In this document: piece after piece, positions 30,262 to 64,000 of the stretch
How positions within the stretch are numbered: the first letter of the stretch is position 1
Layout: every line of letters begins with the position of its first letter
Assembly (NCBI GenBank): GCA_029060065.1
Contig: JAIDUT010000058.1
Span: 242 to 64,241, forward strand
From: Clostridia bacterium
Lineage (GTDB): Bacteria > Bacillota > Clostridia > Christensenellales > UBA3700
Length of the DNA: 64,000 nt
Direction: 5' to 3'
Notes under the pieces: model-generated
Database searches by the model: none
What the model was told of the DNA's origin: nothing
Seen by the model: the letters and a program-made list of their open reading frames with translations, nothing else
Made by a program: the position numbers and the translations under genes

Positions 30262-30335
30262 TGGAGCAGGTGACGGGAATCGGACCCGCGCTGACGGCTT
30301 GGGAAGCCGTAGTTCTACCATTGAACTACACCTGC
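30262..30335 (-). tRNA. tRNA-Gly (anticodon CCC), CCA-encoded
   Basis: The reverse complement GCAGGTGTAGTTCAATGGTAGAACTACGGCTTCCCAAGCCGTCAGCGCGGGTCCGATTCCCGTCACCTGCTCCA folds as a cloverleaf with anticodon loop TTCCCAA. The T-loop reads TCCGATT, with C at position 55. Confidence 0.9.
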
Positions 30336-31966: not shown

Positions 31967-32683
31967 TCAGCAACTACTTTTATAATCAATATTTGCTAAT
32001 TTTGCTTGCTTACACAAGTCTTTTGTTTGTATTTTATATTGTTTTCCATCTTTTAACGTATAAGTTCCACATTGTCTAAACTCAAAATCAACCTTTTTTC
32101 TCACACATTGTTCTCTAACATCTAATGCCCAGTCGTAATTAAATACTCTTGCATTTATATCAGATTCTCCGCCTACTACGACTAATTCAATATCGTCAAG
32201 ATATTTTTCAATATCTATTTTCTCTAACAATGGTTGCGCTGTAATACATTTATGTTTTATAGGCAAATCCTTAAATATTGATAATTTATAATCTGCATTT
32301 TTTTGATTTTCAACAGTACAACATACAACCACGTTATCATATCCATCATTCCAATCATTTGGAATACAGTTTATAAATCTTTCTATTCTTTTGGTCAGAA
32401 ACAAAAAAGTACAGTCTTGCCGTTCTCTAATCATTTGCCAACATTCATTTCTCCACTCATCTGCTTCTTCAATAAGAAAATCTGTAGAAAAACATAAATA
32501 GACAATTCCCGATTTCATTTTATAATTGCCATTTTTTAATTTTTCTATCGGTTTTTCAAAGTCTTTTGTCTTTATAATGATATTGGTGTTTATATTCCTT
32601 TTTTTATCTCCTTTATGGATATAGCAATGCAAACAACCTTCGCTACATTTTCTACATCCTCGCCACGGATTCCACATTGCCAT
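31967..32683 (-). CDS. DUF5131 (phage Gp37/Gp68) family protein
   Basis: The N-terminus is MAMWNPWRGCRKCSEGCLHCY (the WNPxxGC..S.GC..CY signature). A GGAG RBS precedes the ATG at 32683. Confidence 0.8.
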   Translation of the reverse strand: MAMWNPWRGCRKCSEGCLHCYIHKGDKKRNINTNIIIKTKDFEKPIEKLKNGNYKMKSGIVYLCFSTDFLIEEADEWRNECWQMIRERQDCTFLFLTKRIERFINCIPNDWNDGYDNVVVCCTVENQKNADYKLSIFKDLPIKHKCITAQPLLEKIDIEKYLDDIELVVVGGESDINARVFNYDWALDVREQCVRKKVDFEFRQCGTYTLKDGKQYKIQTKDLCKQAKLANIDYKSSC

Positions 32684-32769
32684 ATCATTTGCTCCCAAAA
32701 TCTTAATTCTTACTAGTTATCTTGAAATTTGTTGATTCATTATACTCACGGATTTATCTAATTTCTAAA

Positions 32770-32976
32770 TCAGTTCTTTACACTTTCATTTTCACCCAGA
32801 ATATTATATTTTTCTGTTGTATCAAGAACCACGTCGCAAAAACCGAGTGCTTCATAAGATTAATATGCCGGAAGATTATTCTCAAAAACACCCAATGATA
32901 CTTTATTTGCTCCATATAGTTAAGATGCAAATTTTAAGACTAAACTGAGCATAGCTTTTCCATATATTCTAATCAT
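32770..32976 (-). pseudogene. GNAT acetyltransferase remnant (N-terminally truncated, two in-frame TAA stops)
   Basis: The minus frame reads GKAMLSLVLKFAS*LYGANKVSLGVFENNLPAY*SYEALGFCDV, which is GNAT motif A/B interrupted by stops. Confidence 0.7.
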
Positions 32977-33077
32977 ATGTTTGTCTCAAAAATTACTTTT
33001 TATCGCACAAATAATTATAGCGTATTTAATAAACAAATGCAAGTGTAAATCCATACGACGCCATATACAAAAGTTAA

Positions 33078-33152
33078 GGGATTCGCAAGGAGCGTAGCGA
33101 CGGAATAGCGAGCTTGCGAGCGTCAATATTTCGATAACCCGATACTGTAACT
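33078..33152. repeat. Imperfect ~75-bp repeat, copy 2 (starts GGGATTCGCAAGGAGCGTAGCGAC)
   Basis: See 31823-31897. Confidence 0.7.
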
Positions 33153-33186
33153 ACAAAAAGAAGTCGCAAAAAAGCTGAGTGATAGA

Positions 33187-33266
33187 AAAAGTGAGGTGCA
33201 AAACACCTCACTTTCTATTACTCGCCAAGAGCGACTTCTTGGCTGTGGCGGAAGCGGAGGGATTCG
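33187..33266. repeat. Terminator hairpin plus tRNA-Ser 3' end (the copy that is part of the intact gene)
   Basis: It matches 31752-31830. Confidence 0.85.
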
Positions 33267-33336
33267 AACCCTCGAGCCGATTACTCGGCTACTTGATTTC
33301 GAGTCAAGCCCGTTATGACCACTTCGATACGCTTCC
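33246..33336 (-). tRNA. tRNA-Ser (anticodon CGA), CCA-encoded, long variable arm
   Basis: The reverse complement is GGAAGCGTATCGAAGTGGTCATAACGGGCTTGACTCGAAATCAAGTAGCCGAGTAATCGGCTCGAGGGTTCGAATCCCTCCGCTTCCGCCA. The anticodon loop is CTCGAAA and the T-loop TTCGAAT. Confidence 0.93.
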
Positions 33337-33623
33337 GTATGGCATTAAGTTTAACGCATAAACTTCTTTTTGGCAAGCGAAATCAACTCATTTTCCAAAA
33401 ATGGCGTAAATTACAAGCTTACAGCTGACAAAATCAAAAATGAAATAATAATTTTACCACCCACTAATTACTTTATTGTACATAAAAACTCATATCATCT
33501 TGTTTTAAACAATATATGTCCTATTTTTTGGACAATTACCGATAATGCAGATTATTTTGACAAATTTTGTATTGATTTAGACATAAATGTATGCTAGACT
33601 TTGATTGTAAGTAAAATTTGGCA

Positions 33624-33697
33624 GAAAAAAAGCCACATCTACCTGTGGCACTTTTTAGTTTAGAATTTATTTTAACTATACCTAGCAATTCGTACTT
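33624..33697 (-). ncRNA. tracrRNA: Predicted tracrRNA (trans-activating CRISPR RNA)
   Basis: The minus strand reads AAGUACGAAUUGCUAGGUAUAGUUAAAAUAAAUUCUAAACUAAAAAGUGCCACAGGUAGAUGUGGCUUUUUUU. AGUACGAAUUGCUAG is a perfect 15-nt complement of repeat positions 12-26, and GUUAAAAU pairs with repeat GUUUUAGU across a bulge. The 3' end is a hairpin followed by U7. A near-consensus promoter lies just upstream. Confidence 0.8.
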
Positions 33698-33699
33698 AC

Positions 33700-33728
33700 A
33701 ATATATCACACATAGGAGTTGTTGTCAA
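33700..33728 (-). promoter_or_regulatory. Candidate tracrRNA promoter (TTGACA, 17 nt, TGnTATATT)
   Basis: On the minus strand the -35 TTGACA is at 33728-33723 and the extended -10 TGaTATATT ends at 33700. The -35 box overlaps the first base of the cas9 ATG. Confidence 0.6.
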
Positions 33729-36700
33729 TGGAAAATGTAAAAAAAATCGGAAATTATTCAATAGGAATAGATATCGGTACTAATAGCGCTGGTTGGGCGG
33801 TGATGAACGATGATTATACTCTCCTTAGAGTAAACCATAAAAATCTATGGGGCGTAAACCTTTTCGACGAAGGTATGCCCGCACAGGATAGACGAGCAAA
33901 GCGTACCGCTCGCAGGCGTCTTGTACGACGCAAACAACGTATCGCTACCCTACGAAAACTAATGGAAAGCGATGTATTAAAAGCCGACGAGTCATTCTTC
34001 ATCAGAATGGACCAAAGTTATTTGCATAAAAACGACGACTTCGGTAGAGAATGTAAATATAATCTTTTCGCGGACAAGCTCTACACTGACAAAGAGTTTT
34101 ACACGCAGTATCCGACGATTTATCATCTAAAAAAGGCATTGTTAGAGAGCTATGAAAAGTTTGATATCCGCCTAGTATATTTGGCAATTCACCACATAAT
34201 AAAATACAGAGGCAACTTCTTGTATGAAGGCGACGCCGAAGGATTCAAGGGTTATGACGTCGAGTATATCAAAAACTGTTTCGACGAATTAGATGACAGC
34301 GCAATATATATTGACAAAATAAACGACGTTGAAAAAATACTTCTTGACGACTCCAAAAAACGTAAAGAAAAAGTAGAAAGCATCAAAAGTTTGTTTAGCT
34401 CTAAAGAAGAACAAGCCTACGCCGAACAATTTGCCAATGCCGTCCTTGGACTAAAGTTTAATCTCGGCGTTGTATTAGGTAACCGTGATGATATAAAGAA
34501 TGAGAACGGCAAACCTTTGACGATTAGTTTTTCTGACGCGAGTTATGAAGAAAAAGCCGATGATTATATCAACCTAGCATCTGACGATGCTCCCCTACTC
34601 GGTGCGCTGTACACACTTTACTATTCTCTAACGTTCAAGGAGATACTCGGCAATAACGACTATATCTCCTATGCTATGTGCGATAAATATGATATACACC
34701 ATAGAGATCTCTATGACATAAAGGGCTTGATGAAGGAATACTGCGACGAGAAATCGTACGCGCAATTCTTCACTTCAAAGGAAAGCAAGGCTAAAGATTA
34801 TATATGCTATTACAATTATATTCATAGAATAAACAAGCTAAAAGCAAATAATAAGACTCCCAACGAAGTCTTTGTCGACGAAATCTTTAAGTTACTTGAA
34901 AAGACGTCGCGAATACAAGAACTTCAAGACGATGAGAGGTATATGCGACTAAAGGCAATTCATCAAAACAATTTGAGGGAGATTTTACCTAAGCTAAACT
35001 CTAAGGTCAATGCGACTATTCCCTATCAAATGAATTATAAAGAGCTAAAAATCATTCTTGAAAAACAAAGTAAGTACTACCCTTCGCTTAAAGAAAACAA
35101 AGATAAGATTATCTCACTGCTGACATTTAGACGTCCATACTACGTAGGCGTACTAAATAAAAATAGTAAATTCAGCTGGTACGACAAGGACATTGACGGC
35201 AAAGTCGAGCCGTGGAATTTTAACGATAAGATTGACCTTGGTTACGCGCAAGAAAGATTTATAGAGAACTTGACTAACAACTGTTCCGTATTCCTTGAAG
35301 AGCCCGTCTTACCGCTCAATTCTTTCCTCTATAGCGAGTATATGGCGCTTGACGAACTCAACAAAATTAAAGTAAATGGCAAACTTCTCTCGCCTTCCGT
35401 CAAAAAACAACTCTTTACGGATTTGTTCTGTTCGGCAAACGCAAAGGCGAAAGTCACCAATAGCGATATCGCAGAATGGTTGAATAAGAATGAAAATCTC
35501 AAGTTGAGCAAGTCGGATATAACAGGTCTCCACGAGGACGACCACTTAGCAAATATCTACAAGCCGTACAGGGATTTTAAGAGAATCTTAGGCGACAATT
35601 TTAGCGAAAAGAATATCCAAGATATTTACGAAGAAATCGTAAAAATACTTACAATATTCGACGTCAATGATAAGCAGACGAGAATGGAAAGAATTGAAAA
35701 GGCGCTCGATAAAGATAAAACTAACGCCGTAAGCCAAAATCAGATTATGGCTCTTGCTAAACTCAACTACAACGGTTGGGGACGGTTCTCCAAAAAGGTA
35801 CTCAACGGAATCTACAGCAAAGAAGATAATCGTCGCACTGTTATCCAAGTAATGAGAGATACCGTTAAAAACTTTATGGAAATTACTGCAACTAAGAACA
35901 GCCCATACGGTTTCTACGAGCAAATGCAACCGCAAAAGCAAGACATCGAGAACTTCTACGCCGATTGCATTGAAAACAGTTACTGCTCGCCTGCCGTAAA
36001 GAAATCCACCAATCAAGCTATAAAACTCATAAAAGAGATTATCAAAATAGTCGGTCATGCTCCATCGGCTGTTTATCTCGAAAGCGCAAGCGGTGAGGAA
36101 TTAAATAAGAAAGGCAAGAGAACAAAATCCAAAGCCGATACCCTCAAAGAACTTTACGACAAAGTAACAAAGTCTGCGCGCGACGAAGATTATGAAAGGA
36201 CTAAGATAGAACTTAAAACTCGCATAGATGACGAAAAGGCAAGAAACGTCAAGTCCAACGAATCTGCCTTCAATAAAGAAAAACTATATCTATACTTCAC
36301 ACAACTTGGCAAATGTATGTACAGTGGCGATTCGCTCGACGTAAGCCAGCTGGATAAGTACGAAGTCGACCATATTATTCCGCAATCTCTCATAAAGGAC
36401 GACAGCAGAGATAATAAGGTACTCGTCAAAAAGATTGAAAACCAAAACAAAACCGATAATCTAACTCTGAGCAAGGACGTCATTGCTAGAATGACCGCCA
36501 CTTGGAAAAAACTGCTCAGGATGAATTTCATCAGCAAGAAAAAGTTTTACGCTCTCACGAGAGAGAATTTTGACGAGAGAGATATAGAGCAATTCATAGA
36601 GCGCCAACTCGTGGAAACTCGACAGACTGTTAAAGTCGTGGGAGATATCGTCAAGTTGCTTCCTGAACTCGATGGTTGCGATGTCGTAAAAGTACCGGCT

Positions 36701-37987
36701 AAATCTTGCAATAACTTAAAATCTGCACTAGGCTACTTCAAGGTAAGAGAGCTCAACGACTATCATCATGCTAAAGACGCGTATATCGCCTGCGTATTCG
36801 GTAGATTTGCGCAAAATACAGTAAGTAAAAACAACGGTGGCTTTAGACAGCTCTATCGCAAAGGCATACAGATGAGCCTTAATGACGGAGGTAGAGGCAA
36901 GTCGCAAAAACTACGCCACGGCTTGGTCGTAAATATGATGAATCTGAGATTCGGCTCTATTCTCAGAACCGCCAACGAAGAGTATGACGAGAAAGGCAAT
37001 CTCTTACGCCAAGAATTGCAAATGCTCTCCCCCGATGGTGAGATAATATGGTCGTCCACGTACCGCGAAAACGTTTTAAGAACACTCAACTACAACGACT
37101 GTCTATTGACAAAAAAGATTGAAGAAGAGGCAAATTCGGATTTCTATGACCAAACAATTTACGGAAAGAATAGCTCTAAGTCTAATTTGATTCCACGCAA
37201 AATGGCAGTAAATAAGTTCGGCAAAAAAGTCGACTTACCACCTCAGCAATACGGCGGATATAGTTCTATTAGTTCCGCGTACGCTATAGCAATAGAATAC
37301 AAAAAAGGTAAAAAATACGAGAGAAAAATTGTCAATATTCCTCTCCTCAACGTATATAAAAATAACGTCGACGAGTACCTAAAGCACAACTACGGCGAGT
37401 ACACCGTTCTAAAAGACAAGATATGCAAAAATCAAATGCTTATCTATAAAGGACAACTATGTTACTATATATCGGAGTCGGAACTCAATAACGCTACGCA
37501 AATCAAAGGCAAACAATATTGGCAAGAAGCATTAAGTAAGATTGCAAAAGCTAATGAGAGAAAGACGTGGCTGTGTAAAGATAATATGACGGACGAAGAA
37601 TACACTAAAATAAACAGGCAAATGCGAGCATTCGTAAACGACTTCCTAGACCAACTCGGAAAAAAATATTTTGCGCTCTACAACGATATAGCAAAAAATA
37701 TAAAGGAAGGCTTCGTCGATAAAGGAGGCTTTGATGCATTGTCTTTTGAGCTTAAGCAATCGTTTATATTTGAATTACTGAAGATTACATCTACAGCGGG
37801 CAGGACAGATAAACTCAAAGATTATATAGTTACCGTTGACGGCGAGACTCTTACGATTAAAGGGGCGAGTTTAGGCAGGCTTACCCAAAAACTCAACCTT
37901 GACGATATAACTTTCGTCAACCGTTCTATTACCGGGTTCTGGGAAAAGAAAATTCCCGCTAGCCAGCTCCGAAAGGATAAGAAATAA
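33728..37987 (+). CDS. cas9: CRISPR-associated endonuclease Cas9 (type II-A), 1419 aa from the ATG at 33728
   Basis: RuvC-I is IGIDIGTNSAGWAV (Asp codon at 33770-33772). The Arg-rich bridge helix is RRAKRTARRRLVRRKQRI. RuvC-II is VYLESA (Glu at 36080-36082). HNH is YEVDHIIPQS...DNKVLV (His at 36371-36373). RuvC-III is NDYHHAKDAYI (36764-36778). An AGGAG RBS lies 9 nt upstream. Confidence 0.97.
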   Translation: MENVKKIGNYSIGIDIGTNSAGWAVMNDDYTLLRVNHKNLWGVNLFDEGMPAQDRRAKRTARRRLVRRKQRIATLRKLMESDVLKADESFFIRMDQSYLHKNDDFGRECKYNLFADKLYTDKEFYTQYPTIYHLKKALLESYEKFDIRLVYLAIHHIIKYRGNFLYEGDAEGFKGYDVEYIKNCFDELDDSAIYIDKINDVEKILLDDSKKRKEKVESIKSLFSSKEEQAYAEQFANAVLGLKFNLGVVLGNRDDIKNENGKPLTISFSDASYEEKADDYINLASDDAPLLGALYTLYYSLTFKEILGNNDYISYAMCDKYDIHHRDLYDIKGLMKEYCDEKSYAQFFTSKESKAKDYICYYNYIHRINKLKANNKTPNEVFVDEIFKLLEKTSRIQELQDDERYMRLKAIHQNNLREILPKLNSKVNATIPYQMNYKELKIILEKQSKYYPSLKENKDKIISLLTFRRPYYVGVLNKNSKFSWYDKDIDGKVEPWNFNDKIDLGYAQERFIENLTNNCSVFLEEPVLPLNSFLYSEYMALDELNKIKVNGKLLSPSVKKQLFTDLFCSANAKAKVTNSDIAEWLNKNENLKLSKSDITGLHEDDHLANIYKPYRDFKRILGDNFSEKNIQDIYEEIVKILTIFDVNDKQTRMERIEKALDKDKTNAVSQNQIMALAKLNYNGWGRFSKKVLNGIYSKEDNRRTVIQVMRDTVKNFMEITATKNSPYGFYEQMQPQKQDIENFYADCIENSYCSPAVKKSTNQAIKLIKEIIKIVGHAPSAVYLESASGEELNKKGKRTKSKADTLKELYDKVTKSARDEDYERTKIELKTRIDDEKARNVKSNESAFNKEKLYLYFTQLGKCMYSGDSLDVSQLDKYEVDHIIPQSLIKDDSRDNKVLVKKIENQNKTDNLTLSKDVIARMTATWKKLLRMNFISKKKFYALTRENFDERDIEQFIERQLVETRQTVKVVGDIVKLLPELDGCDVVKVPAKSCNNLKSALGYFKVRELNDYHHAKDAYIACVFGRFAQNTVSKNNGGFRQLYRKGIQMSLNDGGRGKSQKLRHGLVVNMMNLRFGSILRTANEEYDEKGNLLRQELQMLSPDGEIIWSSTYRENVLRTLNYNDCLLTKKIEEEANSDFYDQTIYGKNSSKSNLIPRKMAVNKFGKKVDLPPQQYGGYSSISSAYAIAIEYKKGKKYERKIVNIPLLNVYKNNVDEYLKHNYGEYTVLKDKICKNQMLIYKGQLCYYISESELNNATQIKGKQYWQEALSKIAKANERKTWLCKDNMTDEEYTKINRQMRAFVNDFLDQLGKKYFALYNDIAKNIKEGFVDKGGFDALSFELKQSFIFELLKITSTAGRTDKLKDYIVTVDGETLTIKGASLGRLTQKLNLDDITFVNRSITGFWEKKIPASQLRKDKK

Positions 37988-38856
37988 TGGGTTGGCGTAG
38001 TATAGTAGTCGACTCGCCCAGTAAGATAAGTTTTAAGAATAACTATCTTGTAGTCACCGGTAACGATAACAATATGATTCATATTTCCGAAATAGATATG
38101 CTAATGGTCTCGACTACCCAAGCCACTATGACTGCGCACGCTCTATGTGAACTTAATAAAGCAAAGATACGAATAGTGTTCTGCGATGAAAAGCGTAATC
38201 CGTACGGCGAAATTGTAGGATACTATGGCTGTCATAATACAAGCAAAAAGATAGCTATGCAACTAAAATGGGAGGAGCAAGGAAAAGAAAAGATATTTAC
38301 TCAAATTATACGGCAAAAGATTGTCAATCAAGCCACATTGCTTGCAAAAGTAGGTAAACACACCGAAAGTTTATTACTCAAAAATTACGCCAACGAACTG
38401 CTACAAGGTGACGTAACCAATCGCGAGGGCTTTGCCGCTAAGGTATACTTCAACGCTTTGTTTGGCAAAGACTTCTCTCGCCAAATATTTAGCGATACCA
38501 ACTCAGCGCTTGACTATGGATATACTATTCTACTATCAGCGATAAACCGCGCCGTAATCAACTGCGGTTGCATCACGCAACTTGGTCTCAAGCATAGCAA
38601 TGAGTATAACTTCTTCAACCTCTCTTGCGATATAATAGAACCGTTTAGAGTGGCGGTCGACGAATACGTGTATGAAAATGTCGGACGTGTACTCGACAAA
38701 GATTACAAATTCGAGCTTGTCGATTTGCTCAATAAACAAGTCGTATTAAACGGCGAAAATATTTCTCTAGTAATGGCAATAAAGCAAGTGACTAAGGAAG
38801 TGATAGACCATCTGAATTGCCAAGTGTACGAAGGAATCAAACTCTATGAGATATAG
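37987..38856 (+). CDS. cas1: CRISPR-associated endonuclease Cas1 (type II)
   Basis: At 289 aa it has MGWRSIVV...SKISFKNNYLVV, typical of II-A Cas1, plus NSALDYGYTIL and EPFR motifs. The TAATG overlap couples it to the cas9 stop. Confidence 0.95.
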   Translation: MGWRSIVVDSPSKISFKNNYLVVTGNDNNMIHISEIDMLMVSTTQATMTAHALCELNKAKIRIVFCDEKRNPYGEIVGYYGCHNTSKKIAMQLKWEEQGKEKIFTQIIRQKIVNQATLLAKVGKHTESLLLKNYANELLQGDVTNREGFAAKVYFNALFGKDFSRQIFSDTNSALDYGYTILLSAINRAVINCGCITQLGLKHSNEYNFFNLSCDIIEPFRVAVDEYVYENVGRVLDKDYKFELVDLLNKQVVLNGENISLVMAIKQVTKEVIDHLNCQVYEGIKLYEI

Positions 38857-39166
38857 ATATATGAGAATGTTGTTGTTTTTTGACTTACCTACCGATACTT
38901 TTAAGCAAAAACGGGATTATCGATTATTCCGTAAGGCGCTTATAAATGACGGCTTCTATATGCTACAAGAATCCGTCTACTGCAAAATGGTAATAAACAG
39001 GTCAAACGCCGATTTAACAAAAGCTCGAGTCAAAAAGATATGCCCCATCGAAGGCAACGTAATGTGGCTTTGCATAACTGAAAAACAGTTTGCATCAATA
39101 GAACTACTGTGCGGTAGTTTTGATTCAAAGGTTATATCTAGCGAGGATAGACTAATTATACTATGA
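38846..39166 (+). CDS. cas2: CRISPR-associated endoribonuclease Cas2
   Basis: MRYRYMRMLLFFDLPTDT closely parallels the S. pyogenes Cas2 N-terminus as I recall it. The length is 106 aa. It overlaps the cas1 end by 11 nt. Confidence 0.93.
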   Translation: MRYRYMRMLLFFDLPTDTFKQKRDYRLFRKALINDGFYMLQESVYCKMVINRSNADLTKARVKKICPIEGNVMWLCITEKQFASIELLCGSFDSKVISSEDRLIIL

Positions 39167-39840
39167 CGATACGACTGTTTTGCTCAGATTATCAATTAGA
39201 CATACTAGACGACGAAGTGGCTACTTTGGAAGTACTCAACCGAGACTGCTTTCGTAGAATAATCAATGAACTCAAGGGAACCGGTACGCAAGAAATAAGA
39301 GAAATCAATTTGTTCAATGATAATTCTTTTATAGATACAAAAGATATGACAATTATCTTTGACCCGTACGAAGTGGACGTCAATGATAAAACTTATCTTT
39401 CTAGACTCTACAAAGAAATTGAAAAACATTTCAAGCAATCTGATGACAATATATTTTCACTCAATGAACTGAGCGCATATATAAATTTGCACTTTCACAA
39501 CTTAATATTTGGATACCCATTAGAATTGACGATGAAAGATGAACTTGCATTAAAAGATTATTTGAAGTTTTTGGACGTTAAAGTAGCTGAGGAAGATCAA
39601 TCTTTACTAGATAGAATTATTCAGTTCATTAACGTAAACGGCGTAATTAAATTTACCAAAGTCATTGTATTCGTCAACTTAAAGTCTATGCTTACTCAAG
39701 TAGATATAGACAGCGTAATTCAATCTGCAATACGCACTCGCTGTCCTTTGCTCTTGCTTGAAAACGTATCAGACAATCGAGTTTTCCCAAGTGAGCGTAA
39801 ACTTATAGTTGACGAAGAGTTATTCACTGTAGTAAAATAA
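39163..39840 (+). CDS. csn2: Csn2 (type II-A signature adaptation protein, short ~220-aa form)
   Basis: At 225 aa it sits between cas2 and the array. The C-terminal half (VIVFVNLKSMLTQVDIDSV...PLLLLEN...LIVDEELF) parallels S. pyogenes Csn2. An ATGA overlap couples it to cas2. Confidence 0.85.
   Translation: MTIRLFCSDYQLDILDDEVATLEVLNRDCFRRIINELKGTGTQEIREINLFNDNSFIDTKDMTIIFDPYEVDVNDKTYLSRLYKEIEKHFKQSDDNIFSLNELSAYINLHFHNLIFGYPLELTMKDELALKDYLKFLDVKVAEEDQSLLDRIIQFINVNGVIKFTKVIVFVNLKSMLTQVDIDSVIQSAIRTRCPLLLLENVSDNRVFPSERKLIVDEELFTVVK
39809..39838 (+). promoter_or_regulatory. Candidate pre-crRNA promoter in the csn2 3' end
   Basis: TTGACG at 39809-39814, an 18-nt spacer, then TAAAAT at 39833-39838. 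The predicted transcription start is ~40 nt upstream of repeat 1. Confidence 0.45.
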
Positions 39841-39886: not shown

Positions 39887-40447
39887 GTTTTAGTACTCTA
39901 GCAATTCGTACTATTAAACAACTTATGTTTGGTATAATTTCTCCACTAATTTGTTTTAGTACTCTAGCAATTCGTACTATTAAACAACGGGACAAAGGCA
40001 ACCACACCGCGGGCGACTGTTTTAGTACTCTAGCAATTCGTACTATTAAACAACTAAAAAAAAAGTATCGGAACAAGAGAAAAGGTTTTAGTACTCTAGC
40101 AATTCGTACTATTAAACAACTTAACATTTTGCGCATACGTGTGACGGTTGGTTTTAGTACTCTAGCAATTCGTACTATTAAACAACATCCGCATTTATAC
40201 TTGGACATTATAAAGTGTTTTAGTACTCTAGCAATTCGTACTATTAAACAACTCTTTATTATTTCTATATACTGCATCAATCGTTTTAGTACTCTAGCAA
40301 TTCGTACTATTAAACAACGCGTAACGTACAGAACAAACAACCGACTGTGTTTTAGTACTCTAGCAATTCGTACTATTAAACAACTGCCGTTATACGATTT
40401 TCTGAGTTTACTGTGTTTTAGTACTCTAGCAATTCGCTTTTCACAAC
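39887..40447 (+). CRISPR. CRISPR array: 8 identical 36-nt repeats plus 1 degenerate terminal repeat, and 8 unique 30-nt spacers
   Basis: The repeat GTTTTAGTACTCTAGCAATTCGTACTATTAAACAAC starts at 39887, 39953, 40019, 40085, 40151, 40217, 40283 and 40349 (period 66). In the terminal repeat (40415-40447) the first 22 nt are identical and the rest has diverged. Confidence 0.98.
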
Positions 40448-40879
40448 GCACTAAACCGTTTGGCGCTCAAACGCTCAAAATAAAATATGAGCCATTCGGT
40501 TAAAACTCTTAGCAGGGCAATACCGAAAGTAAGTAATCAGTCGTAATACTTTATTACATACAGTTTAACGCATTTTTTGAACAGTTTGCGAAGTTGGTTA
40601 AAAAAAGGCACTCAAGGAAATGACGGCAACGGAAGCGATATTGCGAACGATGCAGGAATTAGCGGATAACTGCGAAACGCTTGAAGAATTCCGCAAAGCC
40701 CTTGCAAAGATAATCAAACAAGGCATAAAAGAAACCGCCCACGCGTTGAGAGTCTAGACGGTTTGGGGGGTCGAGGGGCAACGCTTGTCGTCCCTCTGAC
40801 TTTTCTTTATTATACGGCAAGCAAATATAAAGTCAATAATTGGATGATATAAGATGAAAAGAAATGAACTAATGACCTC

Positions 40880-62633: not shown

Positions 62634-64000
62634 TTATTTCTTGGTTGTCGTTGTTTTCTTAGCAGTCGTAGACTTGCTTGCGGTCGTCGTCTTCTTTGCC
62701 GTAGTAGCCGTCTTTGTAGTAGCAGGCTTCTTTGCGGTAGACGTAGCCTTTGCTGTCGTAGCAGGCTTCTTAGCTGTCGTAGATTTGCTTGCCGTCGTCG
62801 TCTTCTTTGCAGTTGACGTAGCAGGCTTCTTCGTAGCGGTTGAAGTCGTCTTCTTTGCCGTAGTTGCCGTCTTAGCGGTAGCAGGTTTCTTTGCGGTAGA
62901 CGTAGCCTTTGCTGTCGTAGCAGGCTTCTTAGCTGTCGTAGATTTGCTTGCCGTCGTCGTCTTCTTTGCAGTTGACGTAGCAGGCTTCTTCGTAGCAGTT
63001 GCGGTCGTCTTCTTTGCAGTCGTGGTCGTGCTCTTCTTAGTAGCCGGCTTCTTTACAGGAGCTTTTTCGACTACAGGAGCTTCTTCAGCTACTACTTCTG
63101 CGACAACTTCATCGCTAGCCACAGTTTCTTCTGCTGGCGCTTCAACTTCTTGTACTTCTTCGACTACAGTTTCTTCAACTACAGGAGTTTCCTCTACTGC
63201 GGGAGCTTCTTCGACTACAGGGACTTCCTCTGCTACAGCCTCTTCGACTGCAGGAGCTTCTTCTACAGGAGCTTGCTCTTTTACTTCCTCAACTACTTGC
63301 TCTTCAGCCTTTACTTCTTCTTGAGCTACAGGAGCAACTTCTTCGCTAACTGCGCTATCAGCGGCAACTGCTTGCTCTTCTACAGGAGCTACGGTTTCTG
63401 CAACAGGAGCAACTATTGCTTCTTTATTCTTCTTTTGGAAGAGCTTGTCGTTCATAATTAAGAACTTCTCAGCAAGGAACATTATAATCATATCAGCGCA
63501 GGAATAGATAAGCATTGCAAGATAGTTGGCAATTGTCTTTCCTGTACTAAGATTGCTAGCAAAAAGTTTCTGCCATGCGCCTGAATTATTTATTGCGTTA
63601 GCCAACGGTTGGTCAACAATAGTAGTAGTAGCCCACAATGCTACGCTAAAAATTATGTACATAACAATACCGAATGCGAGGTTGCGTCTAGGCTTGAACA
63701 ATACTTTTCTATGCAAAATAAAGTTGATAAGTTTGCAAAGGAAAATACCAATCATCATAACTATGAATGAGCCAAGCGCCGTATTTAACCACGATAAACC
63801 AAACAAATAAAAAGTATGTTGCGCGTCAATCTTTTGAACAAAAGAAAGATCCTTACATAGGTTAAATATTGATTGAACGATAAATCCCACCATACTCAAC
63901 AATACGAAAAGGATTGCTTGCAAAATACCTTTTCCGCCTTTCTTCTTGGGAGCTTCGGGAGTATTGTTATTATTTCCCGTTTCGACCTCTTTGTTTTCAA
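62634..64000 (-). CDS. GtrA-like membrane protein with a long charge-segregated low-complexity tail; 5' end beyond the window
   Basis: The frame stays open upstream of the ORF-track TTG (63923) to the window edge. The TM region includes NFILHRKVLF (GtrA-like). It is followed by a Glu/Val/Ala/Pro-rich block and then a Lys/Thr/Ala-rich tandem-repeat block. Confidence 0.7.
   Translation of the reverse strand, partial: ENKEVETGNNNNTPEAPKKKGGKGILQAILFVLLSMVGFIVQSIFNLCKDLSFVQKIDAQHTFYLFGLSWLNTALGSFIVMMIGIFLCKLINFILHRKVLFKPRRNLAFGIVMYIIFSVALWATTTIVDQPLANAINNSGAWQKLFASNLSTGKTIANYLAMLIYSCADMIIMFLAEKFLIMNDKLFQKKNKEAIVAPVAETVAPVEEQAVAADSAVSEEVAPVAQEEVKAEEQVVEEVKEQAPVEEAPAVEEAVAEEVPVVEEAPAVEETPVVEETVVEEVQEVEAPAEETVASDEVVAEVVAEEAPVVEKAPVKKPATKKSTTTTAKKTTATATKKPATSTAKKTTTASKSTTAKKPATTAKATSTAKKPATAKTATTAKKTTSTATKKPATSTAKKTTTASKSTTAKKPATTAKATSTAKKPATTKTATTAKKTTTASKSTTAKKTTTTKK
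62640..63050. repeat. Tandem direct repeats (159-bp / 53-codon unit, about 2.5 copies) within the coding sequence
   Basis: CTTAGCTGTCGTAGATTTGCTTGCCGTCGTCGTCTTCTTTGCAGTTGACGTAGCAGGCTTCTTCGTAGC recurs at 62769 and 62928 (offset 159). A shorter, diverged copy is near 62656. Confidence 0.85.

Follow-up and report, generated by a model that had tools for sequence, protein, structure and literature searches.

A probable tracrRNA gene with a single 3' hairpin beside cas9 in a rare type II-A CRISPR-Cas lineage

Every type II CRISPR-Cas system needs a tracrRNA, and the type II-A pathway in which it acts was reportedly established by the work of Deltcheva in 2011 and Jinek in 2012. The standard SpCas9 sgRNA scaffold is based on the short-form tracrRNA of Streptococcus pyogenes SF370, an 89-nt RNA that is processed to about 75 nt. 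Past the repeat:anti-repeat duplex, most guide RNAs carry at least two hairpins (published surveys, bioRxiv 10.1101/2020.09.02.279885). Nearly all type II guides have a nexus, in most cases an AA junction that leads into a GG-based stem (Faure et al., PMC6546382). The nexus stem-loop typically begins 1–3 nt after the duplex, or about 9 nt after it in some clusters. The RNA described here is of this already known kind, such as any type II locus should have; it comes from a rare Cas9 lineage and is unusual only in its reduced 3' end.

The window, by which we mean the whole 64,000-nucleotide stretch of DNA that was analysed (64 kb), contains a complete type II-A locus, with cas9-cas1-cas2-csn2 on the plus strand (33728–39840) and a nine-repeat array (Table 1). 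All four cas genes are full length, and the degenerate repeat at the far end of the array fixes the transcription of the array on the plus strand. The window's Cas9 is of the SpCas9 type, matching SpCas9 structures with an E value of about 1e-129, and belongs to a lineage that is rare in public data and thinly sampled. Its best match among GTDB species representatives, from a Clostridia MAG (L001), is 74% identical and the rest reach at most 36%, while a collection of 5.8 billion proteins holds five Cas9 clusters at 57–74% and a second group at 39–41%; the window's own Cas9 sequence was found neither in that collection nor among the GTDB representatives. Identity is just 30–36% to out-of-clade relatives whose repeats are of the SpCas9 type or the GTTTGAGAG type. 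The tracrRNA must be defined before the window's Cas9 can be tested.

One spacer connects the array to a virus. Spacer 2 (39989–40018) matches the viral contig IMGVR_UViG_3300035423_000083 from IMG/VR (L092 2533–2562, minus strand) at 29 of 30 positions, with the single mismatch at the PAM-distal end and a 3' flank of TGGAGG, which fits an active system and crRNAs of plus-strand orientation. The TGG flank of this one protospacer possibly hints at an NGG-like PAM; as only one protospacer was matched, a PAM consensus is not derivable. Four of the five spacers tested in a seed search of IMG/VR had no exact match there, and the array had no match among GenBank phages. The last two spacers both end in ACTGT right before the repeat (40344–40348 and 40410–40414), which may reflect chance or a partial duplication at the array's old end.

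The surroundings of the locus hold two tRNA genes. A tRNA-Ser(CGA) gene (33246–33336, minus strand) lies ~290 nt past the tracrRNA terminator on the same strand, and a tRNA-Gly(CCC) gene (30262–30335, minus strand) lies farther off. The CRISPR module thus adjoins a tRNA gene here and other genes in relatives, a pattern that fits a mobile module. Elsewhere in the window, Tandem Repeats Finder reports dense tandem repeats at 62647–63266, with GTCGTCTTCTTTGCA-like units of 15–159 nt, the 159-nt unit being present in 2.1 copies that are 95% identical; these are probably a repetitive coding region on the minus strand, unrelated to the CRISPR locus.

Directly upstream of cas9 and on the opposite strand, positions 33625–33697 are very probably the functional tracrRNA gene that serves the neighbouring CRISPR-Cas9 system of type II-A. 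A sequence-only reading of this DNA had proposed a tracrRNA with an anti-repeat, a promoter and a terminator of its own. Our analysis supports that proposal and adds to it homologous genes in eight other lineages, compensatory changes and the core GUUAAAAUAAAU. By the type II-A pathway, the ~70-nt RNA would pair with each repeat of a pre-crRNA transcribed from 39887 onward, host RNase III would cut the Cas9-bound duplex, and the trimmed crRNA:tracrRNA would stay on Cas9 and guide DNA cleavage beside a 3' PAM. The start site and the processing of the tracrRNA are inferred.

Table 1. Coordinates of the CRISPR-Cas locus, the predicted tracrRNA gene and the elements upstream of cas9 (positions in the window).
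Feature	Position	Strand	Details
Palindrome TGTCC-N8-GGACA	33517–33534		Conserved in nine lineages; upstream of the candidate cas9 promoter
Candidate cas9 promoter	33572–33600	+	TTGATT 33572–33577, 17 nt, TGcTAGACT 33592–33600
Predicted tracrRNA primary transcript	33625–33697	-	5' end uncertain within 33693–33697; 3' end in the U-tract
Predicted intrinsic terminator	33625–33649	-	GCCACAGGTAGATGTGGC 33649–33632: 6-bp stem GCCACA/UGUGGC, 6-nt loop; T7/U7 33631–33625
A/U-rich linker AAAUUCUAAACUAAAAAGU (DNA AAATTCTAAACTAAAAAGT)	33650–33668	-	At the nexus position; no stable stem predicted
Core GUUAAAAUAAAU	33665–33676	-	Bulge end, lower stem and junction; 12 nt, invariant in nine lineages
Anti-repeat	33669–33696	-	28 nt; 33682–33696 AGTACGAATTGCTAG, then GTAT AGT TAAAAT 33681–33669
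Extended -10 box TGaTATATT	33700–33708	-	TG 33708–33707, one base, TATATT 33705–33700; 17-nt spacer from the -35 box
-35 box TTGACA	33723–33728	-	First base is the T of the cas9 ATG, opposite strand
cas9	33728–37987	+	1419 aa; TIGR01865, 737 bits
cas1	37987–38856	+	
cas2	38846–39166	+	
csn2	39163–39840	+	
CRISPR array	39887–40450	+	Nine repeats: eight identical 36-nt GTTTTAGTACTCTAGCAATTCGTACTATTAAACAAC and a degenerate ninth; eight 30-nt spacers

Both a promoter and a Rho-independent terminator belonging to the tracrRNA are predicted from sequence. The promoter TTGACA-17-TGaTATATT, strong and of the sigma-70 type, was found where the earlier reading had placed it on the minus strand, and with 11/12 plus TG it is the top promoter-like site in 32600–34200 by a consensus scan. 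The 64-kb window has 20 promoters of at least 11/12, against 2.6 in shuffles, and six of at least 11/12 with TG, against 0.1; the tracrRNA promoter is one of these six. This excess over shuffles suggests that near-consensus promoters are in use in the source organism, with that of the tracrRNA among the best. The promoter spacer also holds the complement of the cas9 Shine-Dalgarno sequence AGGAG (33714–33718, plus strand). Only GTA lies between the -10 box and AGTACGAATTGCTAG, which thus begins 3 nt past the box. The usual spacing of 7±1 nt past a -10 box suggests a start at A33693; such a start would leave repeat positions 24–26 unpaired, and those positions are mismatched in most relatives. 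The hairpin and U7 that had been read as the terminator are likewise present, at 33649–33625. They do delimit a unit of ~70 nt, while the ~74 nt given for the transcript by the sequence-only reading comes down to about 69–73 nt, as the start could fall anywhere in 33693–33697. Folded on its own, the tracrRNA shows no significant structure (z = -1.7).

As had been stated, AGTACGAATTGCTAG is the exact reverse complement of repeat positions 12–26, and it is unique outside the array: exact occurrences of this 15-mer in the window are the anti-repeat and the eight perfect repeats only. We used RNAduplex to pair the repeat with all 42,183 non-array 45-nt segments on both strands. The anti-repeat ranks first at -28.7 kcal/mol, about 6 sd off the background mean of -8.9 (sd 3.1), and the best unrelated site, at -23.8 kcal/mol, forms a broken helix. 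This search covered 64 kb of the genome. A better anti-repeat elsewhere had been raised as a possibility, and the duplex scan found none in the window; together, the exact-match and duplex scans rule out a second anti-repeat within these 64 kb.

Cofolding of the repeat with the tracrRNA, suggested by the sequence-only reading, gives -40.7 kcal/mol and a 25-bp duplex over repeat positions 1–26, divided into a lower stem, a bulge and an upper stem. Repeat positions 12–26 pair with 33696–33682, repeat U11 is bulged, and repeat G7–C10 (GUAC) pairs with tracr GUAU (33681–33678). The bulge on the tracr side is AGU (33677–33675), and the 6-bp lower stem joins repeat positions 1–6 to UAAAAU (33674–33669), with a terminal G1-U pair. 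A lower stem, bulge and upper stem with a spacer-proximal G-U pair is the SpCas9 layout. The pairing proposed before, with a GGUAUA loop opposite repeat ACU and an 8-bp lower stem containing two wobbles, did not hold up: both the MFE duplex and the relatives favour the other register, since the AGAGUAU of the relatives is fully complementary to repeat GUACUCU.

We compared the contigs of the closest Cas9 proteins (L001, L081, L082, L083-85, L087, L088/89, L090 and L091). A homologous RNA gene is present at the same position in eight other lineages, whose Cas9 proteins are 39–74% identical to the window's, and all of these genes have a -10 box, an anti-repeat to their own repeat, the motif GTTAAAATAAAT, and a GC hairpin that leads into a run of U. 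TTGACA adjoins or overlaps the start codon of cas9 in L001, L081, L082, L086 (where the sequence was cut just inside the promoter), L087, L088 and L091. L083 has a partial TGACA at the edge of the sequence read, and in L090 the annotated cas9 start leaves no space for TTGACA.

RNAalifold recovered no structure from a MAFFT alignment of the nine tracrRNAs, in which the hairpins were misaligned. For this reason we folded the RNAs one by one and scored covariation on pseudo-sgRNAs (repeat 1–26, GAAA and the tracrRNA) from five members of the window's clade, aligned with an explicit structure. In this 26-pair structure 91.5% of cells are paired, compared with 33–40% when the partner is slid by 1–3 columns, and five pairs carry compensatory double changes (repeat positions 15, 17, 18, 22 and 26). 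The observed covariation scores 0.173 and that of shuffles 0.064, with 0/500 shuffles as high as the observed value. A profile HMM trained on the 3' portions of the eight relatives alone, leaving out the window and all anti-repeats, has one significant site in the 64 kb, 33679–33625 on the minus strand (E=1.2e-7). The anti-repeat itself is more complementary in the window than in the relatives, with positions 25–26 paired only in the window.

Rfam yielded no tracrRNA match in the whole window at the gathering threshold, and none in 33400–33900 at E<=10, where there were only weak, terminator-driven chance matches. The RNA is thus outside the curated Rfam tracrRNA family, which is of the Streptococcus/Listeria type, and within the functional class. 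Two scans of metagenome contigs, one using the N-terminal part of Cas9 and the other a pattern of 26 bases from the tracrRNA, returned no matches. One of the related loci is itself incomplete: in L088/L089 (8001–13000; Cas9 41% identical), a 125-aa Csn2 fragment and the array come immediately after cas9, and both cas1 and cas2 are missing. This relative retains the tracrRNA and the conserved upstream elements, and from its gene content the locus appears capable of interference but not of spacer acquisition.

It is at the 3' end that the window's RNA is reduced. The single strong 3' hairpin noted by the sequence-only reading is borne out: the terminator is the only 3' hairpin of the window tracrRNA, whereas the four closest lineages have two past the A-rich segment, a 3-bp GUC/GAC stem and the terminator. 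The loops of this small GUC-NNNN-GAC hairpin are GUAA, GAAA or UUUC in the four closest lineages, and in two of four more distant lineages the small stem is GCC/GGC or AGCC/GGCU, itself a compensatory pattern. Folding shows the small hairpin to be missing from the window, and the profile alignment has a 7-nt gap exactly there (a deletion of 7–10 nt). L088, of the more distant clade, is likewise without a clear middle hairpin. Judged from these alignments, the single-hairpin state is a derived loss in the window's lineage. The segment that the window tracrRNA has kept is GUUAAAAUAAAU...AAAC and the terminator hairpin. Without the second hairpin of its closest relatives, the function of the tracrRNA could be reduced.

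The nexus region was also read correctly as A/U-rich with no obvious GC stem, as folding confirms. Folded singly, none of the nine RNAs, that of the window included, is predicted to form a stable nexus stem, and what is conserved in all nine at the nexus position is a sequence, AAAU-NNN-A(A/C)AC. AU-rich type II-B nexuses, which probably owe their shape to Cas9, likewise go unseen in MFE prediction (PMC6546382); because MFE folding misses such chaperoned nexuses, the missing predicted stem here is not proof of absence. We rejected three candidate stems that are not kept across the nine sequences: a 2-bp UG/CA with a 5-nt loop, UU/AA with a CUA loop, and the 4-bp UGUU/AACA of L081/L082. In a single guide composed of a 20-nt spacer, repeat 1–26, GAAA and the tracrRNA, the MFE structure pairs the repeat 5' end with the linker CUAAAAA and not with UAAAAU. 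Given the low ensemble frequency of that structure, linker mispairing can be regarded as a risk in the modelled fusion, not a prediction.

An alignment of ~330 nt upstream of cas9 from nine lineages brings out two further elements, a candidate cas9 promoter and a palindrome. The T-TTG and TG-TA of the candidate promoter are invariant in the nine lineages despite differing flanking genes. The palindrome has its sole perfect copy in the window here and does not belong to a wider group of such sites there. The stretch 33517–33600 is probably a cas9 promoter with an operator for a regulator. As the tracrRNA gene and its promoter fill the interval to the ATG, 33572–33600 is the likeliest cas9 promoter; it lies beyond, that is upstream of, the tracrRNA terminator, and if it drives cas9, a cas9 leader of ~120 nt would be antisense to the entire tracrRNA gene. 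The tracrRNA terminator also reads as a terminator on the plus strand (33632–33663), with GCCACAUCUACCUGUGGC and then ACUUUUUAGU. In the relatives a small extra hairpin sits between the strong stem and the U-rich run on the cas9 strand, and in the window, where the middle hairpin is gone, the strong stem comes to lie beside the U-run. By its sequence, this plus-strand hairpin could attenuate cas9 transcription in the window's lineage.

This arrangement suggests that the element might, besides being a tracrRNA, have its main selected role as a cis-antisense/attenuator module of the cas9 leader, in which cas9 transcription from 33572–33600 would have to get past the terminator hairpin as read on the plus strand. 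The amounts of Cas9 and tracrRNA would then be linked through convergent transcription, termination and the cutting of the leader:tracrRNA duplex by RNase III. The conservation of the plus-strand promoter elements and the palindrome in nine lineages whose flanking genes differ argues for such a role, as do the occupation of all space from terminator to cas9 ATG by the tracrRNA gene and its promoter, the hairpin followed by ACUUUUUAGU on the plus strand, and the many other type II-A loci in which the tracrRNA lies on the opposite strand, 40–140 nt away from where cas9 starts. We nevertheless consider it rather unlikely to be the main role. The candidate promoter in the window reaches 8/12 plus TG and goes unlisted by the consensus scan, a weak TACAAT -10-like box (33697–33702, plus strand) could provide cas9 with its own short leader, and attenuation is not clearly conserved, with the small hairpin separating the U-rich tract in the relatives. 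Moreover, such a module is compatible with the tracrRNA explanation and no replacement for it. Related type II-A loci commonly have an antisense tracrRNA close to the start of cas9, and the layout itself is not special.

More doubtful still is a specific circuit for the whole Cas9 clade, in which the tracrRNA lies inside the cas9 leader, with a conserved promoter and a TGTCC-N8-GGACA operator ~130–210 nt upstream, and serves an autoregulatory balance of Cas9 and tracrRNA. The proposed circuit would work through face-to-face promoters ~100 bp apart, a two-strand terminator hairpin and full complementarity of leader and tracrRNA. If true, its mechanism differs from tracr-L repression, and the strong hairpin directly before the U5 tract could strongly attenuate cas9 in the window's lineage. 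Our literature search on a cas9 leader antisense to the tracrRNA turned up nothing specific, and we make no claim on prior description. In either form, the nesting of the tracrRNA gene with the cas9 leader raises the question of how cas9 is regulated.

For the tracrRNA reading itself, the reduced 3' end bears on whether the system is losing function. In a decaying tracrRNA, the loss of the hairpin and the lack of a nexus stem would make Cas9 loading impossible. The 7–10 nt deletion relative to the four closest relatives, which removes the GUC-NNNN-GAC hairpin, is what decay would look like, and PMC6546382 cites nearly abolished S. aureus activity without the 3' hairpins. Decay is nonetheless very unlikely: the four cas genes are full length, eight repeats are identical, the anti-repeat is more complementary than in the relatives, the promoter and terminator are intact, L088 of the more distant clade also has no clear middle hairpin, and cleavage in S. 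pyogenes can largely do without the terminal hairpins (PMC6546382). The idea of a coincidental match, or of a degenerate repeat left behind without any function as RNA, prompted by the presumed repeat origin of anti-repeats and by the many promoter- and terminator-like matches that shuffles give in AT-rich intergenic DNA, is untenable and effectively refuted by the conservation of position, orientation and core in nine lineages, the compensatory changes, the profile match and a duplex energy ~6 sd off the background mean.

A functional tracrRNA is thus the reading that we carry forward, and the value of the find is practical and modest. It supplies rules for guide design, namely the pairing register, the invariant GUUAAAAUAAAU core, a middle hairpin that is dispensable or lost, and a linker, CUAAAAA, that is prone to mispairing. 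A natural tracrRNA of ~70 nt with one hairpin and no predicted nexus stem is also useful for gauging how much scaffold an SpCas9-type enzyme needs.

The RNA is closest to those of L001, L081, L082 and L083-85 (Cas9 57–74%), with which it shares position, promoter layout, anti-repeat register, core and terminator type. These relatives differ from the window in having the extra 3-bp GUC/GAC hairpin before the terminator, in a continuous upper stem, AGAGUAU opposite repeat GUACUCU, where the window has the U11 bulge, and in a duplex that ends at repeat position 24. The GTTTGAGAG-repeat type II-A loci of Clostridia and Erysipelotrichia (Cas9 30–36%) resemble the window in placing the tracrRNA 40–140 nt upstream of cas9 on the opposite strand and in having an A/U-rich segment after the duplex. 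They differ in their repeat family and lower stem, GUUCAAAU, and have retained an AU-rich nexus hairpin, in most cases along with two or three others.

With the natural single guide tracr-L of S. pyogenes (Workman et al., bioRxiv 10.1101/2020.05.21.102756) the locus shares the position of the tracrRNA beside the cas9 promoter region and a regulatory potential. Unlike in tracr-L, the candidate cas9 promoter lies past the tracrRNA terminator and not between tracrRNA and cas9. A long form of the tracr-L type, which has a 5' repeat-mimic and a short match to the cas9 promoter beside a PAM, is ruled out, as no segment mimicking the repeat precedes the anti-repeat on the minus strand and there is no repeat-like element outside the array; a 5' extension of that type is ruled out too, the promoter being 3 nt from the anti-repeat with no space outside the cas9 coding sequence.

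The short-form tracrRNA of S. pyogenes SF370 remains the natural point of reference. That system too is of type II-A with csn2, with the tracrRNA gene upstream of cas9 on the opposite strand and a Cas9 that the window's resembles. In both, the repeat starts with GUUUUAG, GUUUUA pairs with UAAAAU in a lower stem that has a G-U pair at its end, and the last bases of the tracr bulge are AGU, immediately before UAAAAU. The window differs from SF370 in lacking the GG...CC nexus stem and stem-loop 2 and in having one 3' hairpin; its promoter abuts the cas9 ATG, with no room for a divergent cas9 promoter or a long form, and the Rfam tracrRNA model does not match its RNA. In a MAFFT alignment with the S. 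pyogenes scaffold, GUUAAAAUAA is identical in the two and is the one identity confirmed. By eye, AAAAAGUG stands right before the terminal GC hairpin and U-tract in both, and we take the window's ...AACUAAAAAGUG with its hairpin to resemble ...AACUUGAAAAAGUG with its hairpin in SpCas9, that is, stem-loop 2 plus stem-loop 3. By this likeness to the SpCas9 scaffold, ACU-AAAA-AGU in the window may be a vestigial 3-bp stem-loop.
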